Below, piece by piece: positions 2,778-31,639 of a stretch of 64,000 nt of DNA. Positions within the stretch are counted from its first letter, which is position 1. The number at the start of each line of letters is the position of its first letter. The DNA is from Candidatus Omnitrophota bacterium (lineage in GTDB: Bacteria; Omnitrophota; Gorgyraeia; Duberdicusellales; 4484-171), in assembly GCA_024231025.1 (NCBI GenBank), contig JAAEQW010000120.1, positions 66,324 through 130,323 on the forward strand, in the 5' to 3' direction. The notes beneath the pieces are model-generated. The model worked only from the letters and a program-made list of their open reading frames with translations, did not search any database and was not told where the DNA came from. The translations under genes and the position numbers were made by a program.

Positions 2778-4797
2778 TTATTACCTTCTCTTTGCCCCAC
2801 GCATCTACATATCTGCTATTTGCATAATCCATAACTTGTTTGCGTGTTTTGCCCTTGCTAAAACCATTTAAAAGCCAGCTTATATATTGCCCCATTCTTT
2901 CTGCCGACCTGCCATCGCAGAATGGATCTTTCTCCTTAAGCCCCGGAACCAAGGAACCGTTGCCAAGATCATCGTTAACTTTAGGATTCAAACGATAATC
3001 CTTAATCGCCATAATCAACTTATCCAAATCATTAAAAACCAGAAGGTCTTTTTTGCAATATTCGGGATATGAGTGAAGACCTTCCAAGTCAAGGTAAATC
3101 ACACGCACACCAGATAAGAAATTCTCTAAAGAGGTAGTACCCCCAATTAATAATGAAATTGCAAAATCGGCAGCTTGCCCAATTTCCGTAGGATAATTCT
3201 CTGCCATGTACTCGCCGCCCATGAACACGCATCTTCCGGTGTCTTTTGCCTGCTGCATAAGTCCTGAGATCTCTGACAATCTTGTCTGCAAGGTTCGGGG
3301 ACGTTTTGGGCTACAAATTAAACCAATGGTCTTATCGTTCAGCACCCAGTTTAAAAGATACTTATATATCAACCTGCTCCTGCCATTAGGAATAATGCTC
3401 ATACGACGATCAGATGAATTTTCATCAAAATAACAAACAATAAACTCTGCACCATTATCTAGCAATTTTTTACGTAACTTAGCAGACTTTTCTTTAACTT
3501 GAGAAAATGAATAGTCCGTTAGGAACCCGGAAACAATAACCGCCTCATTGCAAGTTCCGCTAGCAAGAAGCTTCGAATGGTAGTAAGGGCCAAAAACAAA
3601 ATACGCATCAGCAGATGAACCTAAAATAACATTGGAAATTGGCCAATTGGACAATTGGTGACTTACGCTTACTCCTCCGGCGTTAGCCAAAGCAAGACGA
3701 CGAGCAATGCGGTAAGGATCAAAATCAACAAAATCAACATCAACCTTAATCCCATTGATCATATAAAAATCATATGCCTGTGCAAAAGAACGAATAAAAT
3801 GCATTATCGCCGGAAAAAATATTATCGAGATAAATCTTCGACGCAACATCTCTCTAGCCACTAACGATAACGCCTTAAAGGTAAGACCTATAATCATTTT
3901 CGCAACTCTAGGTGTAGGTTGATAAACTGCAACATTTTTGGAAGTCGTTGCCTTATCGGAAACAGCCATACAATTTACCCCTTGTTCCTTTAGCATAGTG
4001 GCCATATCTTCTGTAAGTGGCATATCTTTTCGATCAAAATAAATTAGTGCCTGCTTACGTTCAATGTCCGACAGTAAAAGCCACGGAAAATCATTACGCG
4101 CAGTAAGATTAAAATTTAACCCCCTTAAAGTATATAAAGATGATACTAGTGGTTCTTTGTTCGGCGCATCTCTTTTCTTGGTAAGATTTACAATTGATTT
4201 TAAGCAAGTAACGCTAGAAACATGTACATTGCCTACAAAAAAATAGCAGTATCCCAATATTTTCCTAAATGAAATATGCGAAACTACAGTTAAGTTGCAT
4301 TCTTTTATCGCGAATTCTTTTAAGCTATTAAAAAATAATGTCTTCTCTATGGCAAATTCAACAACTTTTGCACTAGCTTTTTGTGAATTTTTGCAATACC
4401 AAGAAATAACATTCATGAAAACTACAACATCTTTCATCTCTTTGCCAGCAAGTTTTCTAAAAAATATTTTGATTTTTTCTGAACTGTTTGGTTTAAAGAT
4501 TTTGGCAAAAGAATCAACAAAAGTATTCACATCTAGGATATTTTTTTGTATATCATCGCAAACACCGATCAAATCTTTACCAAATATTTTTGGAAAATAA
4601 CTTTCACCTAAATCATTTTTGATTTCAGAAAGACGGAAGTCGAATAGGCTGACTTGCTTGTTTAGCCCAAGCGAAATAAGCAAAAACTTTGCCAATCTAG
4701 AGATGTTAAAGTAATACATTTTCTCATACTGCTTGAAACAAAAAAATGCCCTTATCGCATCTGCCGCATTGAAGTAATCATAAAAAATTATTTTCAT
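2764..4797 (-). CDS. large hypothetical protein (677 aa), putative nonulosonate / capsule-type glycosyltransferase or polymerase
   Basis: No canonical motif recognised by eye. One or two internal hydrophobic segments (IIGLTFKALSLVA...ISIIFFPAIMHF). The C-terminal half has alternating beta-alpha character. Sits between the flippase and the nonulosonic-acid biosynthesis genes, so a transferase role is a context inference only. Confidence 0.3.
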   Translation of the reverse strand: MKIIFYDYFNAADAIRAFFCFKQYEKMYYFNISRLAKFLLISLGLNKQVSLFDFRLSEIKNDLGESYFPKIFGKDLIGVCDDIQKNILDVNTFVDSFAKIFKPNSSEKIKIFFRKLAGKEMKDVVVFMNVISWYCKNSQKASAKVVEFAIEKTLFFNSLKEFAIKECNLTVVSHISFRKILGYCYFFVGNVHVSSVTCLKSIVNLTKKRDAPNKEPLVSSLYTLRGLNFNLTARNDFPWLLLSDIERKQALIYFDRKDMPLTEDMATMLKEQGVNCMAVSDKATTSKNVAVYQPTPRVAKMIIGLTFKALSLVAREMLRRRFISIIFFPAIMHFIRSFAQAYDFYMINGIKVDVDFVDFDPYRIARRLALANAGGVSVSHQLSNWPISNVILGSSADAYFVFGPYYHSKLLASGTCNEAVIVSGFLTDYSFSQVKEKSAKLRKKLLDNGAEFIVCYFDENSSDRRMSIIPNGRSRLIYKYLLNWVLNDKTIGLICSPKRPRTLQTRLSEISGLMQQAKDTGRCVFMGGEYMAENYPTEIGQAADFAISLLIGGTTSLENFLSGVRVIYLDLEGLHSYPEYCKKDLLVFNDLDKLIMAIKDYRLNPKVNDDLGNGSLVPGLKEKDPFCDGRSAERMGQYISWLLNGFSKGKTRKQVMDYANSRYVDAWGKEKVISGVN

Positions 4798-5573
4798 TTT
4801 TGTGACTTATTTTTTACAAAAAGGCGAATTGTATTATTCTTATATATATGCTCTTCTTTAAAAGGTATCGGTAGCGAAGAGCATGCTTCGGTAAAGATTT
4901 TACTCACAATCATCTTTAACCCCTGCCTTTCAAACATCTTCTTAAAATTACGAGGATATGCAGTACAGGTGCCCTCGCTTTCTAAGATAAGAACAAATTT
5001 GTTACTAACCCTGGCCATCTCCTTAAAAATATGATTGGCTTTAGGCGGTATACTTACCAACACCGAATGACAAAAAACTAAATCGAAGCCACCTGTAGGA
5101 AATTTCTTAATTTCTTCGGCAGCATCTCCCGTAATGATTTTAGTGGCATGATGCATTTCAGGAAAGCTTGCTTCCATAAGCTTCACCGCCTCGCTACCAA
5201 TTTCAATGCCGGTTAAATTTTTATAGCCTTGTTTGTGCAAGTAATTTAAAGACCTCCCGACATTACAGCCAATCTCAAGAATAGCACCCTCTTTAGATAG
5301 ATACGGAAGCACTTCCTTAAAAAGTTCCTCGGTGGATTTGTCCTCATCCAAATATGTTTTTGGATCAACCAACGAATCTTGCGTTCCCTGTTTCAACCAT
5401 CTGCCGCGCATAGAAGCCGACGACGTTGAAAGCAGCGGAGAAATTCCATGATCAACAAAAAAAGTTGAGACCTTAAGATAAGCGTATCTTGCTCGTTTGT
5501 TGTTAAGTACTAAAGAGGAGACTCTCTTGAAAACTGGAAAAACTATCTTTTTTATTTCGTGTTTTACTCTCAT
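4794..5573 (-). CDS. class I SAM-dependent methyltransferase
   Basis: Motif I LEIGCNVGRSL, acidic residue after beta2 (GIEIGSEAV), motif post-I/II. 259 aa. Confidence 0.6.
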   Translation of the reverse strand: MRVKHEIKKIVFPVFKRVSSLVLNNKRARYAYLKVSTFFVDHGISPLLSTSSASMRGRWLKQGTQDSLVDPKTYLDEDKSTEELFKEVLPYLSKEGAILEIGCNVGRSLNYLHKQGYKNLTGIEIGSEAVKLMEASFPEMHHATKIITGDAAEEIKKFPTGGFDLVFCHSVLVSIPPKANHIFKEMARVSNKFVLILESEGTCTAYPRNFKKMFERQGLKMIVSKIFTEACSSLPIPFKEEHIYKNNTIRLFVKNKSQK

Positions 5574-6157
5574 TAGTTTTTCTCCTCTGTGAATTCATTC
5601 TTAAGAAGGCCCATCCTATAACAATCTAAGTATTCGTCATTTAAATAAAAACTCTGCCTCAATGTTCCCTCAAGCTGAAAACCCGCCTTTTCAAAAGCCT
5701 TGCGAGAACCCTCATTGCCAGCAATAACACCGGCGCAAAGCTTATGAAGATTAAGCCTGTTAAAAGCGTGCGCAGCTATTAATCTTATTGCTTTAGTGGC
5801 GTAACCTTTACCCCATTGCTCCTTGTCTCCGACAATAATTCCAATCTCACCATTTCTATTTCTCCAATCTATTTGCTGCAAAGTAATATTGCCGATATGC
5901 TTATCGCAAGATTTATGAAATATTCCGGTTAAAATGCCATTCTGATTTTTTGAGAAATCATCTACATATTTTTTTAATGCCATCTCGGTTACAGGAAATC
6001 TTCCACTACCCATATAAGTAGTATTTTCTTGATCATTAAGCCAAGATTCATACTCGCTAAAATCGCCTTCCTGTGTCAGGGTACGCAAATAAATTGTATC
6101 ACTATCAATAAAAACTGACACCGCTTTTTTCTCGCTGAATATTTTGTCTTGTTCCAT
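5573..6157 (-). CDS. GNAT family N-acetyltransferase (PseH-like candidate)
   Basis: GNAT motif A region QWGKGYATKAIRLIAAHAF and motif B (AGNEGSRKAFEKAGF). 194 aa, adjacent to the NeuB-family synthase as in pse loci. Confidence 0.6.
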   Translation of the reverse strand: MEQDKIFSEKKAVSVFIDSDTIYLRTLTQEGDFSEYESWLNDQENTTYMGSGRFPVTEMALKKYVDDFSKNQNGILTGIFHKSCDKHIGNITLQQIDWRNRNGEIGIIVGDKEQWGKGYATKAIRLIAAHAFNRLNLHKLCAGVIAGNEGSRKAFEKAGFQLEGTLRQSFYLNDEYLDCYRMGLLKNEFTEEKN

Positions 6158-6185
6158 ATAAACCTTCTTTCTTAAATAGTACTTA

Positions 6186-7247
6186 CTACGCTATCGAGCC
6201 CCAATTTAAAGGGGTTCCCTTTTTAATACCCCTTTTGGCCGCTTTTCCCAGAACTTTTTTTAGATTACTCGGAGCCAAGCCCATACCGGGCCGTATCGAC
6301 CTTATATTTTCCTTGGTAAACAGTTGGCCTTTTGTTATATCCTCTACTGCAAACAATGAGCGCCTAAAAACGCGATTGTTTTTTTCTTCGTCGGTTAAAC
6401 CATAGCTTATTTTCCCTAAAGCAACTTCAACTGTGCGTACATCTCTTACGAGAGTCTTTAGCTCTTCTGGTTCAATTGAAAAAAAACTATCGGAAGTTTT
6501 CATTTTTCTAGATAAAGTAAAATGTTTTTCTATTGCCACTGCCCCCACTGCAACCCCAGCAACTGACACTGCAGCACCCATGGTATGATCAGAAAGACCA
6601 ATCGGACAATTAAACTTCTTTTTCATATCATTTATTGTGTTTAAGTTCATGTTTTTGGGATTTGCCGGATAACTGCTTACGCATTTGAGCAAAATTATAT
6701 CCTTTGCTCCCGCCTTTCTAGCCACCGCCACTGCTTCTTTAATCTCCGAAAAACTAGCCATGCCAGTTGAAAGCATTAGTGGCTTTTTTGTTTTTGCCAT
6801 ATATTCAATCAGTGCTAAATCAACCAATTCAAATGATGCCAATTTATGCATCGGTACATTTATGCTTTCCAGTAAATCAACACTAGTTTTATCTGTTGCC
6901 GCAGAAAAAAATATAATTCCCAAATCATCAGCAACTTTTTTTAATTTTTTAAACCAATTCCAAGGAGCATACGATTTATCGTAAAGCTGGTAAAGAGTTT
7001 GCCCTCCCCACTTGGGGTGTTTTATTCTAAAATATCTATTATCAACATTAATCGTATGTGTATCAGCAGTATATGTTTGAAACTTTACAGCATCAGCCCC
7101 TGCTTTTTTAGCTTTTTTTATTAAATTTACAGCCCTGTTAAAGCTACGCCCATGATTAGCAGAAATTTCTGCAATCACAAAAACAGGGTTGCAGTCTCCA
7201 ATTGCTATATTGCTGGATTTTAATTTTATGCTATTCTTACAAGCCAT
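6186..7247 (-). CDS. pseI: N-acetylneuraminate/pseudaminate synthase family (NeuB/PseI/LegI)
   Basis: TIM-barrel NeuB N-terminus (NPVFVIAEISANHGRSFNRAVNLIKKAKKAGADAVKFQTY) plus C-terminal SAF/antifreeze-like domain (RSLFAVEDITKGQLFTKENIRSIRPG). Symbol chosen from context with PseB/PseC/PseG. Confidence 0.7.
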   Translation of the reverse strand: MACKNSIKLKSSNIAIGDCNPVFVIAEISANHGRSFNRAVNLIKKAKKAGADAVKFQTYTADTHTINVDNRYFRIKHPKWGGQTLYQLYDKSYAPWNWFKKLKKVADDLGIIFFSAATDKTSVDLLESINVPMHKLASFELVDLALIEYMAKTKKPLMLSTGMASFSEIKEAVAVARKAGAKDIILLKCVSSYPANPKNMNLNTINDMKKKFNCPIGLSDHTMGAAVSVAGVAVGAVAIEKHFTLSRKMKTSDSFFSIEPEELKTLVRDVRTVEVALGKISYGLTDEEKNNRVFRRSLFAVEDITKGQLFTKENIRSIRPGMGLAPSNLKKVLGKAAKRGIKKGTPLNWGSIA

Positions 7248-7248
7248 A

Positions 7249-7893
7249 TTAGTCCTTTCGATAAATCTTCAAAATATACTTATGCCCCTTGTGAACAAAA
7301 AACGCAGGGAAATCATCATTGTTAACTATACGCAATAAATTAAATTGTTTAGCCAATGTCGAATTTGGCGACATTTGACTGCTTTCTGAATCTCTGCGCT
7401 TATAATATGTGCTCTTGCCTTTTTGCTTAAGCGCTTTTAATCTTTTTCTCTTTCGTAAAAATTTCATACAAAGCTTTATCGTCGTTTCAGCTTGAATTTG
7501 CCTTACTTCACCATGAAGCTCATACCCCTTTAATAAGATATAGTCTTTCAAGTATACATCACCAGAATCCAAGGCGTCGGTGGCCTCAAACAAAACAATC
7601 GGTACTTTGTTTTTTCCTTCTAGTATTTGCCAAAACAACGGCGACCAACCCTTTCCTTGGGGTAAGGCGCTCTCATGCACAACCAGTACATGTTTATGTT
7701 TTTTAATAAAGCTTTTGCTTAAAACCTTAAAATAACTGAGCACAAACACAATTTCATAACTGTCAGATATTTGTTTAGGACTTGTAAAAAGTCTTGCGGA
7801 CACCTTTTTTTTAGCCAAGATATTGACCATTTTTTTTGCATAAGCCAAAAACCAACTGTCTTTTGACGTTAATATCGCAACTTTGCTTTTCAT
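7249..7893 (-). CDS. formyltransferase-domain protein (Fmt N-terminal-like)
   Basis: HESALPQGKGWSP...SGDVY region resembles the formyl_trans_N catalytic core (HxSLLP..rG, D). Such proteins recur in nonulosonic acid loci. 4-bp overlap with the upstream gene. Confidence 0.55.
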   Translation of the reverse strand: MKSKVAILTSKDSWFLAYAKKMVNILAKKKVSARLFTSPKQISDSYEIVFVLSYFKVLSKSFIKKHKHVLVVHESALPQGKGWSPLFWQILEGKNKVPIVLFEATDALDSGDVYLKDYILLKGYELHGEVRQIQAETTIKLCMKFLRKRKRLKALKQKGKSTYYKRRDSESSQMSPNSTLAKQFNLLRIVNNDDFPAFFVHKGHKYILKIYRKD

Positions 7894-8630
7894 CTCACCA
7901 CCCTGATCGTCTTAAAAACCTCCGCGCAACCAATACCCGCCTTAACGCCCCAATCTTGCGCTCTTAATTTTATGGCGCTAATTGAACGCGGATGACTGTC
8001 ATCTCTTAGCTCATCTTTATACTCACCCATAGCTTCCAACTTGACATTGATTGTTTTTGATATATCAAGAAACACGTCTGGAGAAAAACTATAAGGATAG
8101 CGCCACTCCGTAGAAGAAGGCACTTCAAAAGAATATATCTCCTTTACAGGTTCGTTAGCCAAGGGTCGCGTGGCCGTTAATACCGCCTTAAATGTTAACT
8201 GGTGATCTATATTCAAATCACCTTCATAATGAGTAAATATTACACTTGATTTTGTGTCATTCTTTATTTTTTCAATTGCCTTAACTATGTCGATAAATGC
8301 TATCGTGTCAAAACGATTATCGGGAAAGTCGCAAAAGAAAACCTCTTTTACTCCCATAATTTTGTTAGCTCTTCTAGAATGATCTTTAAGCCTTTCTATA
8401 TCCTTTGCTCTTTTCTCTGCATCTCTAGCATTATCTCGAGAAGTAACACCCTCTCCTAATATAAGCACATAGGCCTCGCTGCCATCCTGAACCAAGCGAG
8501 AAATCGCAGCTCCACAACCTAGAACTTCATCATCGGGATGAGCAGCCACAACTAAAATTTTTTCTTTTGCTAACACTTTTTTCTCCTTTTTTTTAGGATC
8601 TCGAAGATAAACATTTTTCAACATTGCCAT
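7890..8630 (-). CDS. PIG-L/LmbE family N-acetylglucosaminyl deacetylase
   Basis: Signature VVAAHPDDEVLGCGAAI (AHPDDE metal-binding motif) and downstream HxxH region. True start may be a few codons internal. Confidence 0.7.
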   Translation of the reverse strand: MAMLKNVYLRDPKKKEKKVLAKEKILVVAAHPDDEVLGCGAAISRLVQDGSEAYVLILGEGVTSRDNARDAEKRAKDIERLKDHSRRANKIMGVKEVFFCDFPDNRFDTIAFIDIVKAIEKIKNDTKSSVIFTHYEGDLNIDHQLTFKAVLTATRPLANEPVKEIYSFEVPSSTEWRYPYSFSPDVFLDISKTINVKLEAMGEYKDELRDDSHPRSISAIKLRAQDWGVKAGIGCAEVFKTIRVVR

Positions 8631-9324
8631 TGTGACTTATAAATTCGTCTTTGGTAACGTTATACGCGGTTAATACGCCCAATTCTAAATCCTTATACAC
8701 TGCACCGGTATCAATCCCAATCTTATAATCATCCACGTATGGCCTACTCTTGGCCGTATGCCCAAAGATTACTCTTCTTCCTTGGTACAGAATCTGAGAA
8801 TTTATAAACTCGTCACGTATAAAAACCATTCTTTCTTTATTGTGTTCTTTTAGTGGTTTATCTTTGTTCGTCGGCTCTATGCCAGCATGGACACATAAAA
8901 AGTCATCGCCCAGTTTGTGATACAGCGCAAGATTTGAACAAAACAGCAAAAAATCCTTTAGCTTTGCTGTAACTCCTTTTTTATCAACAAGAATCTGACG
9001 AGCCTCTTGCACGTCTAGCTTCTTGCCAATATAGCTTTCCAGCGTGGCAATACCTCCATAATTTATCAAAAAATCTAAAAATCTTTCTTCCCCTAAAAGA
9101 TATTGCATCCAAGCATGCTCATGATCGCCCATAAGAAAAATACATTTCTTTTCATCAGATAACCCTTGCAGGCGCTCGATAACCTCTTTTACCTTTGCAC
9201 CCTTATCTGAATAGTCACCTAAAAATATAATCTTACGGGCATCGCTAATATGTCCCAACAGGCTGTTAAGCTTATCGTATTCACCATGAATGTCAGTAAT
9301 AATATATGTCATCGCTTTGCCCAC
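8593..9324 (-). CDS. calcineurin-like metallophosphoesterase
   Basis: Motifs DIHGEY (GDxHG), GDYSDKG (GDxxDRG-like), GDHEHA (GNHE). Alternative start at MTYII (9312) abuts the stop of the upstream gene. Confidence 0.65.
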   Translation of the reverse strand: MGKAMTYIITDIHGEYDKLNSLLGHISDARKIIFLGDYSDKGAKVKEVIERLQGLSDEKKCIFLMGDHEHAWMQYLLGEERFLDFLINYGGIATLESYIGKKLDVQEARQILVDKKGVTAKLKDFLLFCSNLALYHKLGDDFLCVHAGIEPTNKDKPLKEHNKERMVFIRDEFINSQILYQGRRVIFGHTAKSRPYVDDYKIGIDTGAVYKDLELGVLTAYNVTKDEFISHNGNVEKCLSSRS

Positions 9325-10208
9325 TGCAGATTATCACCTAAAAACATCTTTAATCCACCATCAAAATTATAGTCAAATGATCCTGTAATATTCTTCAACT
9401 TAGAGTTATCCAGATAAAATTTTACATAATCCTTTGGTTCCTTTATCTCTATTTTAGAAGATGATCCCAATACAGCCTTTATTTTAGATGCAGTCATAAC
9501 AAAATCTGTCTCCTGACCATAAGAGCAGTTAATTATCTCTAGATTACTACTCCAGTCATAGGCTGTCGCAATCTTTTTCGTAAGTTGCGAAGCATCACCA
9601 ACGTAAATGGTTTCCCAAAACTTTAACCCAGTAGAATCAACAAGAACTAGCTCATTATTGATTAGTTTTTTTGCTACATTATATATATACCCCGCACGAC
9701 GAGGATAGCCATACAACCCCGGATACCTTAGAATTAACGCCTTTATTAAGCCCTTATTGGCATACGCAGCAATAGCATCTTCACCCCATTTTTTAGACAA
9801 TCCGTAAAAATGAATTGGATCAAGCCTTGCATTCTCCTTCACAGGACTAGCATTATCTGCAGCATAAACTGTCATTGATGAACAAAAAATTAATTTACCT
9901 ATATTTTTGTTAACCATAGTTTCCATCAAGTTTATTGTTGCCTGCAAATTAACATCCACCATGCCATTCGGGCATCGTCCATCATTTTGTATTTTTATAA
10001 CTGCTGCACAATGTATCACCAAATCTATTTCTGCAGATAACGCCCCCTCCAAAGAAGCAGCATCTCGAATATCACATTGTTTAAAATCAACTCCACTCAC
10101 AGGATTAGGACTATGGATGTCTATTACCGTGACATGATTTTCAGCAGAAAAATTCCTTGCCAAATAAGATCCTAAAAACCCCGCCCCTCCTGTTATGGCT
10201 ATATTCAC
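9309..10208 (-). CDS. NAD-dependent epimerase/dehydratase (extended SDR)
   Basis: N-terminal ITGGAGFLGSYLAR Rossmann motif, YxxxK region (YGLSKKWGE). Confidence 0.7.
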   Translation of the reverse strand: MNIAITGGAGFLGSYLARNFSAENHVTVIDIHSPNPVSGVDFKQCDIRDAASLEGALSAEIDLVIHCAAVIKIQNDGRCPNGMVDVNLQATINLMETMVNKNIGKLIFCSSMTVYAADNASPVKENARLDPIHFYGLSKKWGEDAIAAYANKGLIKALILRYPGLYGYPRRAGYIYNVAKKLINNELVLVDSTGLKFWETIYVGDASQLTKKIATAYDWSSNLEIINCSYGQETDFVMTASKIKAVLGSSSKIEIKEPKDYVKFYLDNSKLKNITGSFDYNFDGGLKMFLGDNLQWAKR

Positions 10209-12099: not shown

Positions 12100-12102
12100 A
12101 AG

Positions 12103-13419
12103 TTATGCCAATCTCTTAAAACCTGAATGACAAACCGGATATTTTAAATATTTCTCCGGGTCACCGCTTTTAATTGCTTCGGCTATTGTGCCAAAAGCCT
12201 GATCACAAGCTGCCAAATAAAGATTAATATCCTTATTTTTATGCGCATAAGAAACATAGAAGGCAGTAGTTGCTAACACCTGTTGACGTAGCATTTCCTG
12301 GATAAATAAGGTTTTTAAAATCAAACTATCTTCATATTCAAAAGAAAAGTGCCCTAAAGGATAAATACCAAAAACTCGTATTTTTAAATTATTTTTTTTA
12401 GCTAAATTGCGCCACCCTTTTTGAACTCGTTTACCAATTTTTTCTAAATGCGCTGGAACATTCTTTTCTTTAATCTTTCTTATTGTAGCAAGAGCCGCAG
12501 CTGGGCCGATGCGCTCGGTCCAATAGGTGCTGCTAACAAAGGTGCTCTGCAAACTATTCATAATTTTTTCTTTACCAATAATCGTCGCCATAGGAAAACC
12601 ATTACTAATTGCTTTAGCAAATACAGCAATATCCGGCTGCCAACCAAATAAAAGATGCGCCCCCCCACAGTTCAAACGCCAGCCTGAAGTTATCTCATCT
12701 AAAATAAAAACTGCTCCAATATCTTTGGTGGTTTTGCGAATTATCTTATAAAAATCCTTATCTGGAAAAACGTTTCTTACGGTTTCTAGCACTACAGCAG
12801 CAATCTTCCCTTTGTAGCGATCAACAAGTTCTAAAAGTTTCTCGCTATCATTGTATTTAAACGGGTGGCTTGTGCCCTCTAATGCTCTAGGAACACCAGC
12901 AGGATCTAGCCCTGGCAAAAGGTGACCATCTAAAGATTTATCGTTGCCTAAGTTGGCGGAAATATACCAATCATGCCAACCGTGATATCCACAAAATAAA
13001 ACGATATCTCGACCAGTTGAAGCTCGGGCAGTTCTTACCGCAATCGCCATCGCTTCTCCTCCCGTGCGAGCAAACCGAACCATTTGGGCCCATGGATGAA
13101 GTTCCAACAAAAGCTCGCTTAGCTCTACTTCCTCCGAAGCATTTAGGGTACTCATATTCCCATGATCAATAACAGCCTTAACTGTTTTGTTTATATCCGA
13201 ATCCGCGTAACCCAGAATGCAGGAACCGATTCCCATAAGACTACAATCAAGATACTCATTATCATCTAAGTCCCATATGCGGCAGCCCTTAGCTTTTTTA
13301 TAATATGCAGGCCAACCACCAGGCAAAAACATTTCCGGCCGTTTAGATAAAAGCTGGGTTCCACCGGGAATAATCTTTTTTGCCTGCCTGTATAAATTTT
13401 GACAACTATCTTTTTCCAT
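12103..13419 (-). CDS. class III (GSA-aminomutase-like) PLP-dependent aminotransferase
   Basis: ILDEITSGWRLN..., Schiff-base lysine region DIAVFAKAISNGFP, GYHGW motif. 438 aa. Confidence 0.7.
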   Translation of the reverse strand: MEKDSCQNLYRQAKKIIPGGTQLLSKRPEMFLPGGWPAYYKKAKGCRIWDLDDNEYLDCSLMGIGSCILGYADSDINKTVKAVIDHGNMSTLNASEEVELSELLLELHPWAQMVRFARTGGEAMAIAVRTARASTGRDIVLFCGYHGWHDWYISANLGNDKSLDGHLLPGLDPAGVPRALEGTSHPFKYNDSEKLLELVDRYKGKIAAVVLETVRNVFPDKDFYKIIRKTTKDIGAVFILDEITSGWRLNCGGAHLLFGWQPDIAVFAKAISNGFPMATIIGKEKIMNSLQSTFVSSTYWTERIGPAAALATIRKIKEKNVPAHLEKIGKRVQKGWRNLAKKNNLKIRVFGIYPLGHFSFEYEDSLILKTLFIQEMLRQQVLATTAFYVSYAHKNKDINLYLAACDQAFGTIAEAIKSGDPEKYLKYPVCHSGFKRLA

Positions 13420-13430
13420 AACTTTCCTTT

Positions 13431-14288
13431 TTATAAGGTAAACATTTCCTTAATCGTTTCCATAAATTCTTCCGGTTCGATCATTCGTTTCTGCTCATCA
13501 AGAATAACAAACTTTTTTCCTGAACGCACAACGCTAAACGTAGGCATTTCCGTAAGGTGCGCGCTGAGCTGTTCACACTCTTTAACACCAACATGCCTAT
13601 TTATTTTAGCCACTTGAGGATTATCATCCAACCACGTATATACAGTCCTTAACGAAAGTGGTGATCCTTTATCTAAGGCGCGATAGACCAAATCAATCAT
13701 CTCAATATCAGCTGGCTCATCAATTGTTAGCCGATACTCTGGCCGGCATAAATCGTGCTCTAGCAAAATATTTAGCATCTTAAATTGAGAAGGATTTTCC
13801 TTAATATGCAAGGTCACCGCTGGACCACGGTGATGTTTGTGAACCTCCTTTAGAGCTTCCAACGAAATTAATTCTGTCAATGTTCCTTGAATCATCGTCA
13901 TATTGCTAACACAACCAAAATCCCAATATTCCTTTTTAAAGGCTTCAACAAGACAAGATGTGCTCTCAATATCAAAAATCGGAGAATCACAAGTAACGCG
14001 AATAACCGCATCGGCTTTTTCTTGCTGACACAGCTGGATGTGCCGATCAACAACATCTTGTTCAGCACCAGAAAACCAACCGCACTCTAAACGTTTAGCT
14101 TCCTGGATTAAAGCTTCGTTCAATGGATCAGTTGAAGTTGCCAGGAACACTCCATTCAAGCCTTGCACCTGTTTCATTCTTTCTACATGCCGTTCAAAAA
14201 TTGATTTGTCTCCCAATTTTTTTAAAACTTTACCTGGGCATCGAGTCGATGCCATACGCGCAGTAATCACACCAATAACTCTTCTCAT
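13431..14288 (-). CDS. acylneuraminate cytidylyltransferase family (CMP-nonulosonate synthetase, PseF/SpsF-like)
   Basis: N-terminal VIGVITARMASTRCPGKVLKKLGDKSI (glycosyltransferase family A cytidylyltransferase P-loop-like motif). 285 aa. Confidence 0.65.
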   Translation of the reverse strand: MRRVIGVITARMASTRCPGKVLKKLGDKSIFERHVERMKQVQGLNGVFLATSTDPLNEALIQEAKRLECGWFSGAEQDVVDRHIQLCQQEKADAVIRVTCDSPIFDIESTSCLVEAFKKEYWDFGCVSNMTMIQGTLTELISLEALKEVHKHHRGPAVTLHIKENPSQFKMLNILLEHDLCRPEYRLTIDEPADIEMIDLVYRALDKGSPLSLRTVYTWLDDNPQVAKINRHVGVKECEQLSAHLTEMPTFSVVRSGKKFVILDEQKRMIEPEEFMETIKEMFTL

Positions 14289-14298
14289 ATGTTAGCTC

Positions 14299-15276
14299 CT
14301 ATACCTTTTCCCACTGACCGGTCTGAGCCGACCGACTAGCTGCTAATGCTAAGTCTAAAACACCCAATGAATCTTCTACTGAATTAAATGTCGCAACTTT
14401 TTCCTCAACTTTTTTCAAAAAATACTTCATTTCATCAACATACATTTGATTATAGTACAATGGTAAATCTAACGGTTCCCAAACCCAATCTTTCTTTTCT
14501 TTAGTAATCACACCAACTTGTTTGCTGGTAAAATCCCACCCTACTGTAGCTTTGTCACAAACAACTTTATATTTTCTTGCGTATCCATGCTGAAGATAAT
14601 CCATATGTATTCGAACAGATACACCCGAAACAAACTTTATTATCATCTCCACATAATCCTCAGTATCATTAACTACATCTGATAAAATATCCTTTGAACA
14701 TATGACTTTTTGCGCCAAACCAAACATCCATACCGCACAATCTAGTTCATGAATGTCGTCAAAAATTAAATTTCCTCCTAACCGACTGTTAGCTTGGTAA
14801 CTATTCTTATGATTCGTTTTTGCGAATGGTAGATAATATCCAAACTCTAAATCCGCACACAGCGGTTTACCCGTTTGCGGTTGCTGCAACATTTCAAAAA
14901 CACGGCCTACACCCGGATGAAACCGCATATTACACCCGACCATAGAGATTAAGCTGTTATCTTTGATAATAGAAACCAATCCGCTTATTCCATCCCTATG
15001 TAGCGCTATCGGTTTTTCAATAAACAAATGACACCCAGCAACCGCACAAGCAATGGCTGGTTTAATATGATCATTGCTAAATGTACAAATAACTGCCACC
15101 TGCGGCTTAACTGACAACGCCTCATCAAGCGAAACAAAAACATCACGCGCAATGCTAACAGCTGCCTTGAGATTATCCGGGTTAATATCCACTGCATACG
15201 CTTCATGACCCAATGCAATAGCATTTCGTAAATGCCTCATTCCAATAGAACCAACCCCAACAACAAGTATCTTCAT
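14299..15276 (-). CDS. Gfo/Idh/MocA family NAD(P)-dependent oxidoreductase
   Basis: N-terminal Rossmann KILVVGVGSIGMRHLRN, conserved EKP motif (HLFIEKPIA). Confidence 0.7.
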   Translation of the reverse strand: MKILVVGVGSIGMRHLRNAIALGHEAYAVDINPDNLKAAVSIARDVFVSLDEALSVKPQVAVICTFSNDHIKPAIACAVAGCHLFIEKPIALHRDGISGLVSIIKDNSLISMVGCNMRFHPGVGRVFEMLQQPQTGKPLCADLEFGYYLPFAKTNHKNSYQANSRLGGNLIFDDIHELDCAVWMFGLAQKVICSKDILSDVVNDTEDYVEMIIKFVSGVSVRIHMDYLQHGYARKYKVVCDKATVGWDFTSKQVGVITKEKKDWVWEPLDLPLYYNQMYVDEMKYFLKKVEEKVATFNSVEDSLGVLDLALAASRSAQTGQWEKV

Positions 15277-16763
15277 GCGTTTATCTTCTTTTCATCTTCT
15301 TGACGTTTTCTATAAAAATTCAACAAAAAATCCTTGTATAAAACTTTTTCCCAGGCAAATCCATACCACATAATACGATTGCGAATCTTGGCTAAAAAAA
15401 TAAAAAAGCTATTAGTAAATCGATCACTCCAATTACTAATCTGATGGTTTCCCAGTCGTGCTTCTGACTCCATATTAATATATAAAGCCGCAGCCTCAGA
15501 ATAGACACCATTAATCTGCCAAGGTCGAATATATTCCGCAGAAGTATACATATCCATATTCTTTTTATCTGCCCAATCACTTAAGTTAACCGGCTCAACC
15601 AACATACCATCTTCAATTAGCCTTACAGTAAGTTCACACTTAGGGTAAGGGCGAAATGTCCCTGCACCACAGGTAAATTTCTTATACCGGCGAAGACGAT
15701 TTATGAATTTCACCGTTTTTTTTATATCTTTCGCGGATTCTCCCGGTATCTCCAGGATAAAAGAGGCCCTTCCGATAATTCCATGTTGATCACATTTTTT
15801 AATTGCATTTTCAGCTTGTTGAAGCGTAATCCCTTTTTTCATAAGGTTTAACGTGTGTGTAGAGCCAGACTCAATGCCAACGGTTAGCTGAATAAGTCCT
15901 GCCTGCCTTGCTAGAGTCAAGGTTTGATCGTTTAGCATCTTCTCATTAAAATAATCACATCTGCACTCCGCATCCCAAGTTATATTTAATTTACGATCGA
16001 TGATCCCTTGGCATATCACACGTGCGCGCATAACATCTACAAAAAAATTATCATCAACAATTTTTACATGTGTAAGATCAAAACGTTTAACAATTTGTGC
16101 AATCTCATCAATAACTTTGTTAGCCTTTTTTTGCCTATAGTTCGTATTACCTGTGACAACATTAATGCAAAATGTGCATAATGATGGGCATCCCCGGCTG
16201 CTTTCATAAGGTAACCACCGCATCGGTTGGCTAGCAGACTGCGCCAACTTATCAGTTAGATAATTGCTTATAAACTTTTCAATATCGGAGTCTATGGCAT
16301 AGTCAACTAGCGGTAAACTATTTAAGTCGATTATTTTCTTGGGAAATACCGTTGTTGCTAATTTTCTTTTTCCAGCAATTGCATCAGCAACAATACCAAT
16401 ATGCTTCTCGCCCTCTCCCGTGATTACATAATCAACCATACCTGAGCCCATAACTTGATCGGGGAACAAAGTGCAATGCCACCCTCCAGCAACAATAGCA
16501 ACATCACTTTTAGATTTAATCATCTCTAGAATTTCATACGCATTAGGAACTTCCGCAGTCAACATGGTTATTCCCACAAAATCAACATCGTTAATTTGCT
16601 CCATGATCCGCTCTTTGTAGTCTTCGTAAAATGCACAGTTGATAATCTTTACCTGATATCCCTTTTGTTTTAATGCCGTAGCAACTGATATTAACCCAAG
16701 CGAGGGGTAGTTGTTGTAGTTGTAAGTATTTTTGGGACGAATTAATAAAACTTTACCGACCAT
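15273..16763 (-). CDS. B12-binding-domain radical SAM protein (candidate cobalamin-dependent C-methyltransferase/epimerase)
   Basis: N-terminal cobalamin-binding-like domain, radical SAM CxxxCxxC (SRGCPSLCTFC). 496 aa. Confidence 0.7.
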   Translation of the reverse strand: MVGKVLLIRPKNTYNYNNYPSLGLISVATALKQKGYQVKIINCAFYEDYKERIMEQINDVDFVGITMLTAEVPNAYEILEMIKSKSDVAIVAGGWHCTLFPDQVMGSGMVDYVITGEGEKHIGIVADAIAGKRKLATTVFPKKIIDLNSLPLVDYAIDSDIEKFISNYLTDKLAQSASQPMRWLPYESSRGCPSLCTFCINVVTGNTNYRQKKANKVIDEIAQIVKRFDLTHVKIVDDNFFVDVMRARVICQGIIDRKLNITWDAECRCDYFNEKMLNDQTLTLARQAGLIQLTVGIESGSTHTLNLMKKGITLQQAENAIKKCDQHGIIGRASFILEIPGESAKDIKKTVKFINRLRRYKKFTCGAGTFRPYPKCELTVRLIEDGMLVEPVNLSDWADKKNMDMYTSAEYIRPWQINGVYSEAAALYINMESEARLGNHQISNWSDRFTNSFFIFLAKIRNRIMWYGFAWEKVLYKDFLLNFYRKRQEDEKKINA

Positions 16764-17910
16764 ATAAGATTCCTTTCAACGTTTTGCACACATACGCTAC
16801 CTGCTTAGTAGACAGACTTGGATGTATTGGCAACGAAATAGCAGAATCGTAATACTTATTTGCTATCGGATAAGCATTTTTTTGATGCTTTAGCGCCTGA
16901 TAGTAAGGCTGTTGATATATTGGAATATAGTGAACCTGCACGCCGATACCTGCCGCACGCAGCTTTTGAAATACTTTTTTACGTTTGCTCAAGCTATTTA
17001 CCCTAATAGTATATAGATGCCACGCACTGCGGACGCGTGGGGACTGAACTGGTAAAATTAGCTCTTCGATATTTCTTAACTCTTTCTGGTAATAAGCCGC
17101 GATTGATTGCCTAATTTTCATAAAACGATCCAATCTTTTCATCTGATTAGCCCCCAAGGCGCATTGTATATCACTAATGCGATAGTTATACCCCAATTCC
17201 TGCATTTCATAATACCAATTTTCAGATTTTTTCCTCTTAAGCTTTGCCCCATCTTTAGTAATACCATGACTACGAAAAAGAAGTAACCGATCATAGAGCG
17301 TTTTACTGTTAGTAAGAATCGCTCCACCTTCTCCGGTAGTAATCGCTTTTAAAGGATGGAAACTAAACACCGTCATATCGCTATGTTTACCTGCCCCTAT
17401 CTTAATCCTCTTACCTTTATGAAGATAACTGGAACCCAGAGCATGTGCCGCATCTTCAATAACCGCAAGATTATGTTTTTTGGCCAGCCTATAGATATCT
17501 GCCATAGCACAAGGATGACCTGCAAAATGCACTGGAATTATCGCTTTAGTCCTTTTATTAATTCTCTTTTCTAGTTCCTTGGGATTAATATTGACTGTAT
17601 CTTCATAAACATCTGCAAAGACAGGCTTTCCGCCGCAATACAAAACACAGTTAGCTGACGCTACGAAAGTAATCGGAGAAGTAATAACTTCATTATTTTT
17701 TTTAATTCCTGCAGCAAGGCAAGCCAAGTGCAACGCAGCTGTTCCGCTAGATACAGCCACCGCGTATTTAGCTTTCGTGTAGACACATAGGGACTTTTCA
17801 AACTTTTGAACATTTGGCCCTTGAGTGAGCCACTCCGACTTTAAAGCTTTAACAACAGCTTTGATATCAGCTGAATTAATAGCTTGATGGCTATAAGGTA
17901 TAAACTTCAT
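16753..17910 (-). CDS. pseC: DegT/DnrJ/EryC1/StrS family sugar aminotransferase (PseC-like)
   Basis: N-terminus MKFIPYSHQAINSADIKAV, PLP lysine region SFHPLKAITTGEGG. Immediately downstream of the PseB homologue. Confidence 0.7.
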   Translation of the reverse strand: MKFIPYSHQAINSADIKAVVKALKSEWLTQGPNVQKFEKSLCVYTKAKYAVAVSSGTAALHLACLAAGIKKNNEVITSPITFVASANCVLYCGGKPVFADVYEDTVNINPKELEKRINKRTKAIIPVHFAGHPCAMADIYRLAKKHNLAVIEDAAHALGSSYLHKGKRIKIGAGKHSDMTVFSFHPLKAITTGEGGAILTNSKTLYDRLLLFRSHGITKDGAKLKRKKSENWYYEMQELGYNYRISDIQCALGANQMKRLDRFMKIRQSIAAYYQKELRNIEELILPVQSPRVRSAWHLYTIRVNSLSKRKKVFQKLRAAGIGVQVHYIPIYQQPYYQALKHQKNAYPIANKYYDSAISLPIHPSLSTKQVAYVCKTLKGILYGR

Positions 17911-17928
17911 AACTCCTTTAGCTTGCGC

Positions 17929-18975
17929 TTAAACAGGCGCTCCTTCTTTTAACCACCGCGATTTCTCAATAGAATAATCATTGCTGATGCGCCCAACAAT
18001 TTCGGCAAGGTCCTTAACTGACATCCAAACCGTATTGTTCTCTGAGGTGTATTCAAAATTCTCAAGACAATTTTTACCTTGATCCACAAAAGCTGACATT
18101 TCACCTTGATAGCTTTTGCAAGGATTAATGATATAGAACCTGTTGAACTCTAAGGTATTTCGAGAATCGTCTTCTCCGATTAAAACTTCATGTATTTTCT
18201 CTCCCGGTCTTATTCCTATGATCTCATGCTTGCAATCCGGACCAATCGCCTTAGCCAGGTCGGTTATCCGCATCGAAGGTATTTTAGGAACAAAGGTTTC
18301 TCCGCCTTCCATGTGACTTAAGGTAAATAGCACAAAATGCGCAGCCTGATCTAAAGTAATCCAAAACCTTGTCATTCTAGAATCAGTAACAGGTAACACT
18401 CCGGTTTTTTTCCACTCTTTAAAAAATGGTATTACCGAACCACGGCTACCTAAAACATTACCGTACCTCACAACACAAAACTTTGTATCATGAAATCCAC
18501 TATACACACGGGCAGCGGAAAACAACTTGTCAGAACAAAGTTTGGTTGCCCCATATAAATTAACCGGATTACAAGCCTTGTCAGTTGACAAAGCTACAAC
18601 TTTTTTTACTTTATTGGCAATAGCTGCATCAATAACATTCATCGCTCCTAAGATATTTGTCTTGATGCATTCACATGGATTGTACTCAGCAGCAGGAACC
18701 TGCTTTAAAGCAGCAGCGTGGATAACACAATCTACACCACCAAAAGCACGCATCAAGCGCTCTTTATCGCGTACATCTCCTAGAAAATAACGAATAAAAG
18801 GGTATTTTTTTTCACTCCACTTTTGCGCCATCTCAAACTGCTTTAACTCATCACGACTGAAGACTATTAACTTCTCCGGTTTATACTCTTGAACTATAAT
18901 CTGTACCAATTTCTTGCCCAAAGATCCTGTGCCACCGGTAATTAAAACAACTTTTCCGTTTATAAGATTTTTCAT
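17929..18975 (-). CDS. pseB: UDP-N-acetylglucosamine 4,6-dehydratase (inverting), PseB/FlaA1/CapD-like
   Basis: KVVLITGGTGSLGKKLV, catalytic region YGATKLCSDKLF (YxxxK), about 340 aa typical of PseB. Confidence 0.75.
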   Translation of the reverse strand: MKNLINGKVVLITGGTGSLGKKLVQIIVQEYKPEKLIVFSRDELKQFEMAQKWSEKKYPFIRYFLGDVRDKERLMRAFGGVDCVIHAAALKQVPAAEYNPCECIKTNILGAMNVIDAAIANKVKKVVALSTDKACNPVNLYGATKLCSDKLFSAARVYSGFHDTKFCVVRYGNVLGSRGSVIPFFKEWKKTGVLPVTDSRMTRFWITLDQAAHFVLFTLSHMEGGETFVPKIPSMRITDLAKAIGPDCKHEIIGIRPGEKIHEVLIGEDDSRNTLEFNRFYIINPCKSYQGEMSAFVDQGKNCLENFEYTSENNTVWMSVKDLAEIVGRISNDYSIEKSRWLKEGAPV

Positions 18976-21213: not shown

Positions 21214-21537
21214 TTAGCTAGCTGGTATTTTTTCTAATTCTTCCTTTAACTTTAGATACTCCTTCTCTTTTCTTTTTAAAAAATAATAAGTAAGCTGCAA
21301 TTTATGCTCTAGACCTTTTCCGGTTAGCATATACTTAACTTTTCTGATTTTTTGGTTTTTAATGGTGAAGTTTTTGATTTCAACCAAGCCTCTGGTAACC
21401 AAAGACTTAAGAAGATAATTAGTCTTACCTAAGGAAACTCCCAAGGAATGTGACAGTTCTCTTTGGCTTGAACCTTCCGTTGACGATAAGACTCGAAGAA
21501 TATTTAGAATGTCTTCTTTGATATGGTGTTCATTCAT
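21214..21537 (-). CDS. MarR-like winged-helix transcriptional regulator (EPS-associated MarR type)
   Basis: 107 aa. wHTH region SQRELSHSLGVSLGKTNYLLKSLVTRGLVEI. Sits at the head of the polysaccharide gene string, as MarR-EPS regulators typically do. Confidence 0.55.
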   Translation of the reverse strand: MNEHHIKEDILNILRVLSSTEGSSQRELSHSLGVSLGKTNYLLKSLVTRGLVEIKNFTIKNQKIRKVKYMLTGKGLEHKLQLTYYFLKRKEKEYLKLKEELEKIPAS

Positions 21538-22715: not shown

Positions 22716-22716
22716 T

Positions 22717-23643: not shown

Positions 23644-23645
23644 AA

Positions 23646-31633: not shown

Positions 31634-31639
31634 CTCATT

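Follow-up and report, generated by a model that had tools for sequence, protein, structure and literature searches.

The closest described relative of the system reported here is the PseB-PseC-PseH-PseG-PseI-PseF pathway of Campylobacter jejuni and Helicobacter pylori (models TIGR03584-TIGR03590), which leads to pseudaminic acid (Pse), a nonulosonic acid activated with cytidine monophosphate (CMP). We describe an operon on a stretch of 64,000 nucleotides from a Candidatus Omnitrophota bacterium (contig JAAEQW010000120.1, positions 66,324 to 130,323; this whole stretch is called the window below), in which the genes of a predicted Pse pathway are interleaved with the gene of a cobalamin-type radical S-adenosylmethionine (SAM) enzyme. 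Like the canonical route, the window possesses PseB, PseC and PseI at equivalog level and a PseG-like hydrolase with the motif GFGH, and the predicted scaffold is again a CMP-activated 5,7-diamino-tetradeoxy-nonulosonate. It differs in that no PseH orthologue and no PseF are present. The position of PseF is taken by an SpsF/KdsB-like cytidylyltransferase, which is locked to the B12 radical SAM enzyme and to an oxidoreductase of the Gfo/Idh/MocA family (Gfo). Eight further tailoring genes are interleaved, and the context is of the Wzx/lipopolysaccharide type, not flagellar, with no Maf protein. The scaffold pathway itself is known. Full-text searches of the literature turned up no report of a radical SAM enzyme in the synthesis of nonulosonates, and to our knowledge such a step has not been described.

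A likeness of logic, not one of proven orthology, exists with the biosynthesis of gentamicin. The conversion of gentamicin A2 to X2 has been established experimentally and needs a dehydrogenase (GenD2), a transaminase (GenS2), an N-methyltransferase (GenN) and a C-methyltransferase of the cobalamin radical SAM type (GenD1). Garosamine is built by these enzymes as a secondary alcohol is converted to a ketone and then to an amine, the amine is modified at its nitrogen and the neighbouring carbinol carbon is methylated (PMC4340712). The window contains the same four enzyme types, and its class-III aminotransferase is related to the GenB enzymes. The radical SAM enzyme of the window, however, belongs to no curated methylase family, and its substrate would be a nonulosonic acid, probably CMP-linked, instead of an aminoglycoside pseudotrisaccharide. 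The coupling of a cobalamin radical SAM enzyme to a cytidylyltransferase is known from fosfomycin biosynthesis, where the class B radical SAM methylase Fom3 acts on cytidylylated 2-hydroxyethylphosphonate supplied by the cytidylyltransferase domain of Fom1, the CMP moiety serving as substrate handle. The two systems differ in their substrate and in the family to which the cytidylyltransferase belongs. A phosphonate route of the Fom3 type was considered and dropped, since phosphoenolpyruvate (PEP) mutase was found in none of the related loci.

The apramycin enzymes AprD4 and AprD3, a radical SAM 1,2-diol dehydratase and its NADPH-dependent reductase, share with the window the pairing of a radical SAM enzyme with an NAD(P) oxidoreductase for work on an amino sugar. 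The fold of AprD4, including its N-terminal Rossmann-like domain, is also close (6fd2, template-modelling (TM) score 0.65). In contrast to AprD4, the window enzyme has an N-terminal domain that scores as a true B12-binding domain; its partner is a Gfo/Idh/MocA protein and not a short-chain dehydrogenase/reductase (SDR), and Pse has no vicinal diol. The cytidylyltransferase is of the same CTP_transf_3 sub-type as the SpsF-type enzymes of NeuB clusters (the sps operon of Bacillus subtilis; 6oew) but falls into a distinct, highly conserved clade adjoining a B12 radical SAM gene.

Tailoring of nonulosonates by other means has been described. In Shewanella oneidensis the sfmABCDE cluster, which includes an ATP-grasp ligase (SfmE) and a SAM methyltransferase, tailors a Pse-type nonulosonate with a single N-acetyl group and a further moiety (PMC3765264). 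The combination of ATP-grasp ligase and SAM methyltransferase in Pse tailoring is common to both systems; in contrast to the window, the sfm cluster is flagellar with Maf proteins, has no radical SAM enzyme, Gfo or PIG-L protein and shows a narrow distribution. The O-antigen of Flexibacter maritimus contains a pentadeoxy, extra-aminated nonulosonate (PMC4052302). Finally, a glycoproteomics preprint on Ca. Kuenenia stuttgartiensis reported undescribed free-amine nonulosonates (oxonium ions 261, 275 and 289) and gave no genetic explanation for them. Kuenenia is absent from the cassette-bearing loci described below, and the preprint is cited as context only.

The Pse core and the radical SAM cassette

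Families were assigned by comparing Pfam and NCBIfam profile scores with the cut-offs of the models. An earlier note on this DNA, made from the sequence alone, had named a series of open reading frames (ORFs) as a pseudaminic-type pathway with tailoring enzymes. An ORF check of the window found all of them at exactly the coordinates given there, all on the minus strand, and the core was borne out: PseB, PseC and PseI exceeded their equivalog cut-offs (Table 1), while the LegB, LegC and NeuB models remained below theirs. PseB scored 243.7 with the rival FnlA model (cut-off 730) and 65.6 with LegB (475), PseC 275.9 with LegC (420) and PseI 314 with NeuB (399.65). With these rivals below threshold and the Pse models passing, a legionaminic, bacillosamine or neuraminic core is out. 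To judge from the profiles, the scaffold pathway is that of a Pse-type nonulosonate. The sole credible PDB match of the PseG-like protein was PseG of C. jejuni (3hbm, E = 0.02), to whose catalytic-His motif its N-terminal GFGH aligned; a faint match to Glyco_tran_28_C was also seen.

Related loci were collected by scanning one genome per GTDB species, which gave 31 loci with orthologues of the radical SAM gene (individual loci are numbered L001 and so on). Identity within this orthogroup was 55-79%; it then dropped to 43% and further to about 30%, where paralogues in other contexts begin. The hosts belong to Omnitrophota, Nitrospirota, Deltaproteobacteria/Thermodesulfobacteriota, Brocadia, Scalindua and other Planctomycetes (anammox organisms included), Margulisiibacteriota, Saganbacteria (WOR-1), Dehalococcoidia (Chloroflexota), Actinomycetota and Methanoregula. 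ANME-2 and Syntrophorhabdaceae were added by look-ups other than the species scan. Altogether the hosts of the radical SAM operon represent more than ten phyla of uncultured anaerobes, bacteria as well as archaea. Homologues of the radical SAM protein number in the hundreds; the best 120 all scored above 670 bits, with identities of 57-63%, and came from very different phyla.

The earlier note took the tailoring enzymes to act on the Pse sugar and not in a separate route. Phylogenetic profiling upheld this, as the radical SAM, Gfo, cytidylyltransferase and class-III aminotransferase genes were syntenic with those of PseB, PseC and PseI across phyla. The gene order was always PseB-(PseC)-radical SAM-(Gfo)-cytidylyltransferase-(class-III aminotransferase)...PseI. 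In all 29 loci with enough flanking sequence the cytidylyltransferase gene (48-82% identity) lay at most 1.2 kb downstream of the radical SAM gene. PseI, that is a NeuB-family gene, was found near the radical SAM gene in 27 of the 31 loci and PseB upstream of it in 26; Gfo and the class-III aminotransferase were nearby in 22 loci each, and PseC was directly upstream in 20. A reverse look-up starting from the cytidylyltransferase revealed the radical SAM and Gfo genes immediately upstream in three of three loci. Synteny and reverse look-up together essentially refute a separate adjacent pathway. Such clustering goes far beyond chance; 31 species-representative genomes from many phyla show this arrangement.

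Profile searches in the loci, evaluated by Fisher tests, showed a modular structure. A core module consists of PseB, PseC, the radical SAM enzyme, the cytidylyltransferase and PseI; PseG could be recognised in about half of the loci. Module B comprises Gfo and the class-III aminotransferase, the latter being present in all 15 Gfo loci (p = 0.003); Gfo also co-occurred with an N-acetyltransferase of the GNAT family (p = 0.013). Module C is made up of an ATP-grasp ligase, an SDR, a phosphatase and a PIG-L deacetylase, and module D of a methyltransferase, a protein of 677 amino acids (aa) and Wzx, to which a conserved Wzx-methyltransferase pair can be added. Because all modules are present in the window and in its close relative L005, these two represent the maximal version of the cluster.

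Co-evolution was examined by a mirror-tree approach, in which pairwise-identity matrices were correlated over the 17 loci sharing all five proteins and evaluated by a Mantel test. The correlation was strongest between the radical SAM enzyme and Gfo (r = 0.91), followed by radical SAM enzyme and cytidylyltransferase (0.81) and by Gfo and cytidylyltransferase (0.74), each with a Mantel p of about 0.0005. With PseI and the class-III aminotransferase the radical SAM enzyme gave only 0.42 and 0.37, respectively, and with PseB, over all available loci, 0.35. In several loci PseI was swapped for distant NeuB types (29-33% identity) while the radical SAM enzyme and the cytidylyltransferase remained constant. 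On the strength of these correlations, of the replacement of PseI and of the overlap of the radical SAM and Gfo genes, the radical SAM-Gfo-cytidylyltransferase group behaves as a cassette tied to activation (cytidylylation) more than to the synthase reaction. We regard a role of this cassette in the Pse pathway as very probable.

The radical SAM enzyme combines an N-terminal B12-binding domain (residues 17-120) with a radical SAM core. An NCBI entry from a metagenome-assembled genome of Candidatus Omnitrophica matches it at 100% identity. Its CX3CX2C motif (CPSLCTFC, residues 192-199) was invariant in 21 orthologues, and an alignment of 21 homologues had a mean column identity of 75%. Profile scores and fold matches served as proxies for its class. 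The best NCBIfam scores were obtained with a ladderane-lipid family (125, cut-off 360), BchE (122, cut-off 481) and HpnJ (120, cut-off 578); the PhpK model gave 114 against 600. The nearest solved folds were TsrM, OxsB, MgmA (the glutamine methylase of methyl-coenzyme M reductase), AprD4, CysS and TokK. The structures of TsrM, OxsB, MgmA, CysS and TokK contain bound cobalamin. TsrM, MgmA, CysS and TokK are cobalamin methylases; OxsB and AprD4 are not. We give an even chance at best to the prediction that the enzyme acts as a C-methylase on the nonulosonate or on its CMP-linked form.

Paralogous B12 radical SAM genes (about 25-32% identity) were observed in further loci (L038-L084, for example L043, L049, L054, L064 and L076), arranged in arrays with two to four members. 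Their neighbours are often genes for DegT-type aminotransferases and SDRs, and the hosts are Omnitrophota, Nitrospinota, Dehalococcoidia and members of several archaeal lineages; this hints at a widespread radical SAM tailoring of other sugars. A second, distant B12 radical SAM gene lies a few kb downstream of PseI in L001 (19981-21375), L011 and L032.

In the window the genes for Gfo and the radical SAM enzyme overlap by 4 nt, and the same is true for most Gfo-carrying loci (offset -3), so that Gfo is translationally coupled to the radical SAM gene. The Gfo protein weakly resembled RgNanOx and YjhC, two oxidoreductases that act on sialic acid by oxidising its C4. The cytidylyltransferase gave no match to the PseF model TIGR03584 at E <= 5, only sub-threshold matches of the KdsB type; its best PDB match was 6oew, and its orthologues are annotated as SpsF by JGI. 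The 120 best-scoring database matches were all at least 61% identical, and this clade adjoins a B12 radical SAM gene in every case examined. As no second cytidylyltransferase is present in the window locus, the SpsF-like enzyme is presumed to be the CMP-nonulosonate synthetase. It also matched weakly (E = 2.5e-4) the N-terminal part of TIGR04321, the 'spiro-SPASM protein'; if the matched part is cytidylyltransferase-like, this would be a further association of a cytidylyltransferase with a radical SAM protein. The class-III aminotransferase has an intact catalytic Lys context (VFAKAIS), and its PDB relatives include the GenB-like gentamicin C-6' aminotransferases 7lld and 7lm0. In the related loci it falls into two clades with 33-38% and 52-80% identity to the window protein. 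Intact catalytic motifs were also found in the radical SAM enzyme, PIG-L, the SDR and the phosphoesterase.

Acyltransferases and optional modules

The earlier note had considered the gene set sufficient for CMP-Pse5Ac7Ac. This could not be maintained, since in addition to PseF the assignment of PseH failed: the GNAT protein scored 37.8 bits with the PseH model TIGR03585 (cut-off 93.1), and its nearest structures were SpeG and enzymes of the AAC(6') type. Locus L085 possesses a PseG-PseH fusion (10159-11640; Glyco_tran_28_C and Acetyltransf_3, 493 aa) and, after PIG-L, a separate GNAT. With the stand-alone GNATs of L085 and L086 the window protein shares 58-59% identity; similarity to the PseH domain that is fused to PseG in L085 could not be detected. 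The window protein is therefore orthologous to the separate GNAT, leaving the window without a PseH orthologue, and its identification as PseH was dropped. Long PseG ORFs of about 490-540 aa in L006, L010, L022 and L024 suggest fusions as in L085. The GNAT family of the window, referred to as post-PseI, was restricted to loci with the class-III aminotransferase (11 of 19, compared with none of the five loci lacking it).

Another candidate for the PseH function is the truncated formyltransferase-like protein. Formyltransferases carry a catalytic Asn-His-Asp triad within the motif NxHxSLLPxxRG ... D. The window protein covers only positions 81-156 of the 181 positions of PF00551, and its alignment with Fmt begins at position 56, the N-terminal strands (the first 50 residues or so) being missing. 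Its motif reads VVHESALPQGKG; the His and a downstream Asp (LDSGD) are conserved. Strong matches were found only in the window, L005, L001/L012 and L033, none of which yielded a small PseH-like GNAT. This distribution makes it more likely that the protein is a substitute for PseH, acylating (perhaps formylating) the 4-amino group that becomes N7 of Pse, than that it re-acylates N5. Alternatively, the post-PseI GNAT could acylate the 4-amino group. An exchange of N-acetyl for N-formyl by PIG-L and the formyltransferase, as envisaged in the earlier note, is made less likely by the loss of the catalytic Asn and by the occurrence of the protein only where a PseH-like GNAT is undetected.

The ATP-grasp sub-module includes two genes, for a metallophosphoesterase and a second SDR, which the text of the earlier note had not covered. 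ATP-grasp, SDR, phosphatase and PIG-L occur together in the window, L005, L010, L022 and L085, and PIG-L orthologues (45-66% identity) were present in L001, L005, L010, L022, L031 and L085. Co-occurrence of ATP-grasp and PIG-L was supported at p = 0.018, and the SDR co-occurred with ATP-grasp. A pairing of the ATP-grasp ligase with the class-III aminotransferase, proposed earlier, had to be abandoned: the ligase travels with the SDR, the phosphatase and PIG-L, the aminotransferase with Gfo and more weakly with the GNAT. In L085, a Nitrospiraceae locus, an IMPase-like (Inositol_P) gene (14620-15405) occupies the phosphatase slot between SDR and PIG-L. This looks like a non-homologous replacement and would imply a phosphorylated intermediate in the sub-module.

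Module D contains the 677-aa protein, for which a structural prediction had been suggested as a check. The protein had no match in Pfam or NCBIfam, even at E <= 5, and its 46 homologues in a database search were all hypothetical proteins. An AlphaFold2 model of high confidence (predicted local distance difference test, pLDDT, 92.9) revealed a GT-B architecture with two Rossmann-like domains. Foldseek matches were UDP-GlcNAc 2-epimerases, TagF and GT4 enzymes (E about 5e-8); for the 2-epimerases, HepE and TagF the probability was 1.0 and the target TM about 0.6. The model makes the protein a candidate transferase for the modified CMP-sugar, and the family may be a new one of transferases for modified CMP-nonulosonates. 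The arrangement of methyltransferase, 677-aa protein and Wzx recurs in L017 and L035, where orthologues of the methyltransferase next to the 677-aa gene adjoin this family too; in L023 the family is likewise near Wzx. Profile comparison of the 677-aa family with unannotated proteins of about 600 aa located after PseI in L003 and L022 gave E values of 0.31 and 0.005. Orthologues of Wzx were found downstream in six related loci, and the pair of Wzx and its partner methyltransferase is kept in L013, L019 and L027 at 54-55% identity.

Proposed pathway and alternatives

Taken together, the evidence inclines us slightly towards the view that the operon makes a CMP-activated, heavily tailored Pse-type nonulosonate, probably C-methylated and extra-aminated, for a lipid-linked surface-glycan route. 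As PseB, PseC and PseI are present, UDP-GlcNAc would yield a 2,4-diamino-2,4,6-trideoxy-L-altrose derivative for condensation with PEP, after the PseG-like hydrolase has freed the hexose from UDP. In the absence of an orthologous PseH, the 4-amino group (N7 of Pse) would be acylated by the formyltransferase-like protein or the GNAT. The SpsF-like cytidylyltransferase would activate the sugar, and the chemistry of the cassette would take place at the nonulosonate stage. Here Gfo may oxidise a secondary alcohol, at C8 or C4 of the nonulosonate, and the cobalamin-type radical SAM enzyme would most likely C-methylate the carbon next to the oxidised position. The class-III aminotransferase could then convert the keto group to a third amino group, to be capped by acetylation (GNAT) or methylation (class-I methyltransferase). 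The nonulosonate of F. maritimus reportedly has an 8-amino structure. Where module C is present, PIG-L would remove an N-acetyl group and the ATP-grasp ligase would add another acyl or aminoacyl group, the acyl donor being a carboxylate processed by the SDR and the phosphatase; the deacetylation and re-acylation of mycothiol biosynthesis follows a comparable logic. Finally, the 677-aa GT-B candidate would transfer the sugar, Wzx would flip the lipid-linked product and the MarR_EPS regulator would control the operon. An O-antigen or capsule as destination, with Wzx and an LptD-like neighbour in mind, is plausible.

Several observations weigh against this proposal. All 22 NCBIfam matches of the radical SAM enzyme to curated B12 radical SAM families were far below cut-off, which leaves it outside characterised subfamilies such as PhpK, HpnR, TsrM, the methyl-coenzyme M reductase glutamine methylase, the RiPP C-methylases, BchE and HpnJ, and its AlphaFold2 model was moderate (pLDDT 76.6) and poor around the cluster loop. 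The dehydratase AprD4 gave the highest target-normalised TM-score, and substrate, position and type of the radical SAM reaction are all inferred. About one third of the loci lack an adjacent pair of Gfo and class-III aminotransferase, so the radical SAM enzyme does not depend on them. The co-occurrence and mirror-tree statistics, including the correlation between radical SAM enzyme and Gfo, ignore shared ancestry and co-transfer of the cluster. PseG, sub-threshold in the window, was undetected in half of the related loci. In all six aligned formyltransferase-like sequences the position of the catalytic Asn is occupied by Val or Ile. L003, L006, L007 and L024 contain a second, shorter CTP_transf_3 gene, and in these loci the radical SAM-linked enzyme is therefore not necessarily the CMP-sugar synthetase.

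It might be argued that the radical SAM enzyme transfers no methyl group at all. In concert with Gfo it could carry out chemistry of the AprD4/AprD3 or DesII kind. A radical-mediated elimination, in which a vicinal amino-alcohol is dehydrated or deaminated, or else an epimerisation would come first, and a reduction with NAD(P)H or a transamination would follow. The nonulosonate so formed would be deoxygenated or of a new stereochemistry. The rank of AprD4 among the closest folds fits this reading, as does the fact that OxsB, another of the top fold matches, is no methylase and that no curated methylase family was matched. Translational coupling and the high correlation with Gfo would likewise suit a pair of radical enzyme and reductase. 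On the other hand the N-terminal domain scored as a genuine B12-binding domain, about twice its cut-off (63 vs 32.1), the AprD4 model aligned only with the radical SAM core (residues 187-381), and cobalamin-dependent methylases make up the majority of the nearest structures. Pse moreover has no vicinal diol, and Gfo is not adjacent in about a third of the loci. We consider a non-methylating enzyme unlikely, though it is the most serious of the alternatives. The preferred reading also places the reaction late, at the nonulosonate stage. The enzyme could instead act early, on the UDP-hexose product of PseB or PseC, for example by methylating C6 or C3 of the 6-deoxy-hexosamine; PseI would then make an already branched or ten-carbon ulosonic acid. 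The gene indeed always follows directly after PseB or PseC, and PseB is as conserved across the loci as the radical SAM enzyme (mean pairwise identity 0.64 for each). Over the common loci, however, co-evolution with the cytidylyltransferase far exceeded that with PseI, and the value for PseB over all available loci was lower still. The exchange of PseI for distant NeuB types beside a constant radical SAM enzyme is hard to square with a synthase that has to accept a modified hexose. Early action thus seems distinctly improbable.

The least probable alternative, to which we give very little weight, is that two pathways stand side by side, an ordinary CMP-Pse route and unrelated enzymes for another sugar or a non-sugar substituent, united only by co-regulation. 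The region at 21588-27516 is clearly a second nucleotide-sugar route, the ATP-grasp/PIG-L sub-module and the methyltransferases are confined to a minority of loci, and the same phyla harbour many B12 radical SAM paralogues in sugar clusters without Pse genes (L038-L084). Against this, the cassette is interleaved between PseC and PseG/PseI in every locus, it accompanies Pse genes in each of the 29 informative loci from bacteria and archaea, and the sole cytidylyltransferase able to activate a Pse product is part of the cassette.

Returning to tailoring by the cassette within the Pse pathway, we suggest, tentatively and as something less than an even prospect, that it represents an unrecognised, widespread branch of nonulosonate biosynthesis in anaerobic bacteria and archaea, in which a new radical SAM family C-methylates or rearranges the CMP-linked Pse scaffold and the 677-aa GT-B protein serves as transferase. 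Known nonulosonate diversity lies in stereochemistry and in N- or O-substituents; N-formyl, aminoacyl and methylated derivatives of Pse and legionaminic acid are chemically known. If the suggestion is true, new branched and/or tri-amino sialic-acid-like sugars would decorate the surfaces of Omnitrophota, Nitrospirota, anammox bacteria, Saganbacteria, methanogens and ANME archaea. It would also mean a new reaction type in the chemistry of these sugars and a new radical SAM family with a defined candidate substrate, Pse or CMP-Pse, that can be purchased or synthesised. Phages, immune systems and symbiosis partners recognise microbial surfaces in large part by their nonulosonic acids. What makes the locus of interest is how widely and how tightly the radical SAM enzyme, Gfo and the cytidylyltransferase are associated, together with the new modified sugars predicted for uncultured anaerobes and archaea.

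Operon structure and surroundings

From 403 to 21537 all genes are on the minus strand, and adjoining genes overlap or are separated by no more than 28 nt (Table 1); they form one tightly packed operon. Further downstream, a gene starting at 402 (MRKIVLMVFIEEFEEF...; 1-402, minus strand) runs past the start of the window, and hence the distal end of the operon lies outside it. Glycosyltransferases or a polymerase may be located there; no glycosyltransferase of a known family was found within the window.

Table 1. Features of the operon and its neighbourhood, with the profile scores or sequence properties on which the assignments rest (cut-offs of the models in brackets)
Feature	Position	Strand	Evidence
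Class-I SAM methyltransferase, partner of Wzx	403-1302	-	PF13489 84.3 bits
Wzx-type flippase	1299-2777	-	Polysacc_synt PF01943 69.3 bits (28.2); about 12 hydrophobic segments
677-aa protein	2764-4797	-	No family; GT-B fold predicted
Class-I SAM methyltransferase	4794-5573	-	Pse-associated methylase TIGR03587 53.3 bits (112.05)
GNAT N-acetyltransferase, post-PseI orthogroup	5573-6157	-	Acetyltransf_3 PF13302 90.6 bits
PseI, pseudaminic acid synthase	6186-7247	-	TIGR03586 454.1 bits (340.25)
Truncated formyltransferase-like acyltransferase	7249-7893	-	Formyl_trans_N PF00551 37.6 bits (26.1)
PIG-L/LmbE-type N-deacetylase	7890-8630	-	PF02585 85.9 bits (28.2); AHPDD at residue 30
Metallophosphoesterase	8593-9324	-	PF00149 46.7 bits; motifs DIHG, GDYSDKG, GDHEH
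Extended SDR, GalE/RmlD-like	9309-10208	-	PF01370 119.7 bits; motifs GGAGFLG, YGLSK
ATP-grasp carboxylate-amine ligase, PylC-like N-domain	10205-11155	-	PF02655, PF15632, PF21360
PseG-like UDP-sugar hydrolase	11152-12099	-	TIGR03590 119 bits, sub-threshold (153.55)
Class-III (GSA-aminomutase-like) aminotransferase	12103-13419	-	PF00202 149.6 bits
SpsF/KdsB-like cytidylyltransferase (CTP)	13431-14288	-	CTP_transf_3 PF02348 63.8 bits (22.6)
Gfo/Idh/MocA NAD(P) oxidoreductase	14299-15276	-	Pfam
B12-binding radical SAM enzyme	15273-16763	-	B12-binding PF02310 63.1 bits (32.1); Radical_SAM PF04055 56.2 bits (29.5)
PseC, UDP-4-amino-4,6-dideoxy-AltNAc aminotransferase	16753-17910	-	TIGR03588 521.5 bits (423.5)
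PseB, inverting UDP-GlcNAc 4,6-dehydratase	17929-18975	-	TIGR03589 503 bits (407.75)
417-aa predicted lipoprotein	18976-20229	-	N-terminal signal and SFGC lipobox-like motif
Wzz/PCP-like membrane protein	20249-21193	-	Topology: hydrophobic segments 25-50 and 278-305
MarR-family EPS-associated regulator, operon head	21214-21537	-	TIGR04176 98.8 bits (88)
Second nucleotide-sugar route	21588-27516	-	DegT aminotransferase, UDP-xylose-synthase/ArnA-C-type SDR, two nucleotide-sugar dehydrogenases, FAD oxidase
FAD oxidase of the second route	25033-26157	-	Closest to L-2-hydroxyglutarate oxidase, 225 bits (299)
LptD-like outer-membrane protein	27519-29669		Next after the second sugar route; housekeeping genes beyond

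The calls of a Wzx flippase and of a MarR-type regulator of exopolysaccharide (EPS) genes in the earlier note both held, the former by its profile score and polytopic topology, the latter because the helix-turn-helix protein passed an equivalog cut-off. Small MarR_EPS/HTH_24 regulators were also observed upstream of PseB in L001, L020, L023, L032, L035 and L085, which belong to several phyla; the regulator seems to travel with the cluster. As to the Wzz-like protein, a putative member of the polysaccharide co-polymerase (PCP) type, the two terminal hydrophobic segments agreed with the call, and only faint Wzz and EpsF matches were obtained. In the related loci the Wzz/PCP-like profile gave one sub-threshold match (23 bits, L009). 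The 417-aa lipoprotein had no Pfam or NCBIfam match and no homologue in the related loci; it is inside the operon but outside the conserved set.

Rfam and tRNA scans of the window gave no family at gathering score (for example an FMN riboswitch) and no tRNA, respectively. A segment of 762 nt without any ORF of at least 100 aa (31246-32007) lies between a riboflavin-synthase-like gene and rsfS.

The second nucleotide-sugar route is located upstream of the MarR_EPS regulator. Of its two dehydrogenases one is UDP-ManNAc-dehydrogenase-like and the other a TuaD-like UDP-glucose dehydrogenase. The nonulosonate of F. maritimus carries 2-hydroxyglutarate in amide linkage, and by analogy it is conceivable that the FAD oxidase of this route is tied to the acyl donor of the ATP-grasp ligase. 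A homologue of the oxidase (47% identity) is encoded directly upstream of PseB in a complete WOR-1 genome (L019, 6490-7608).

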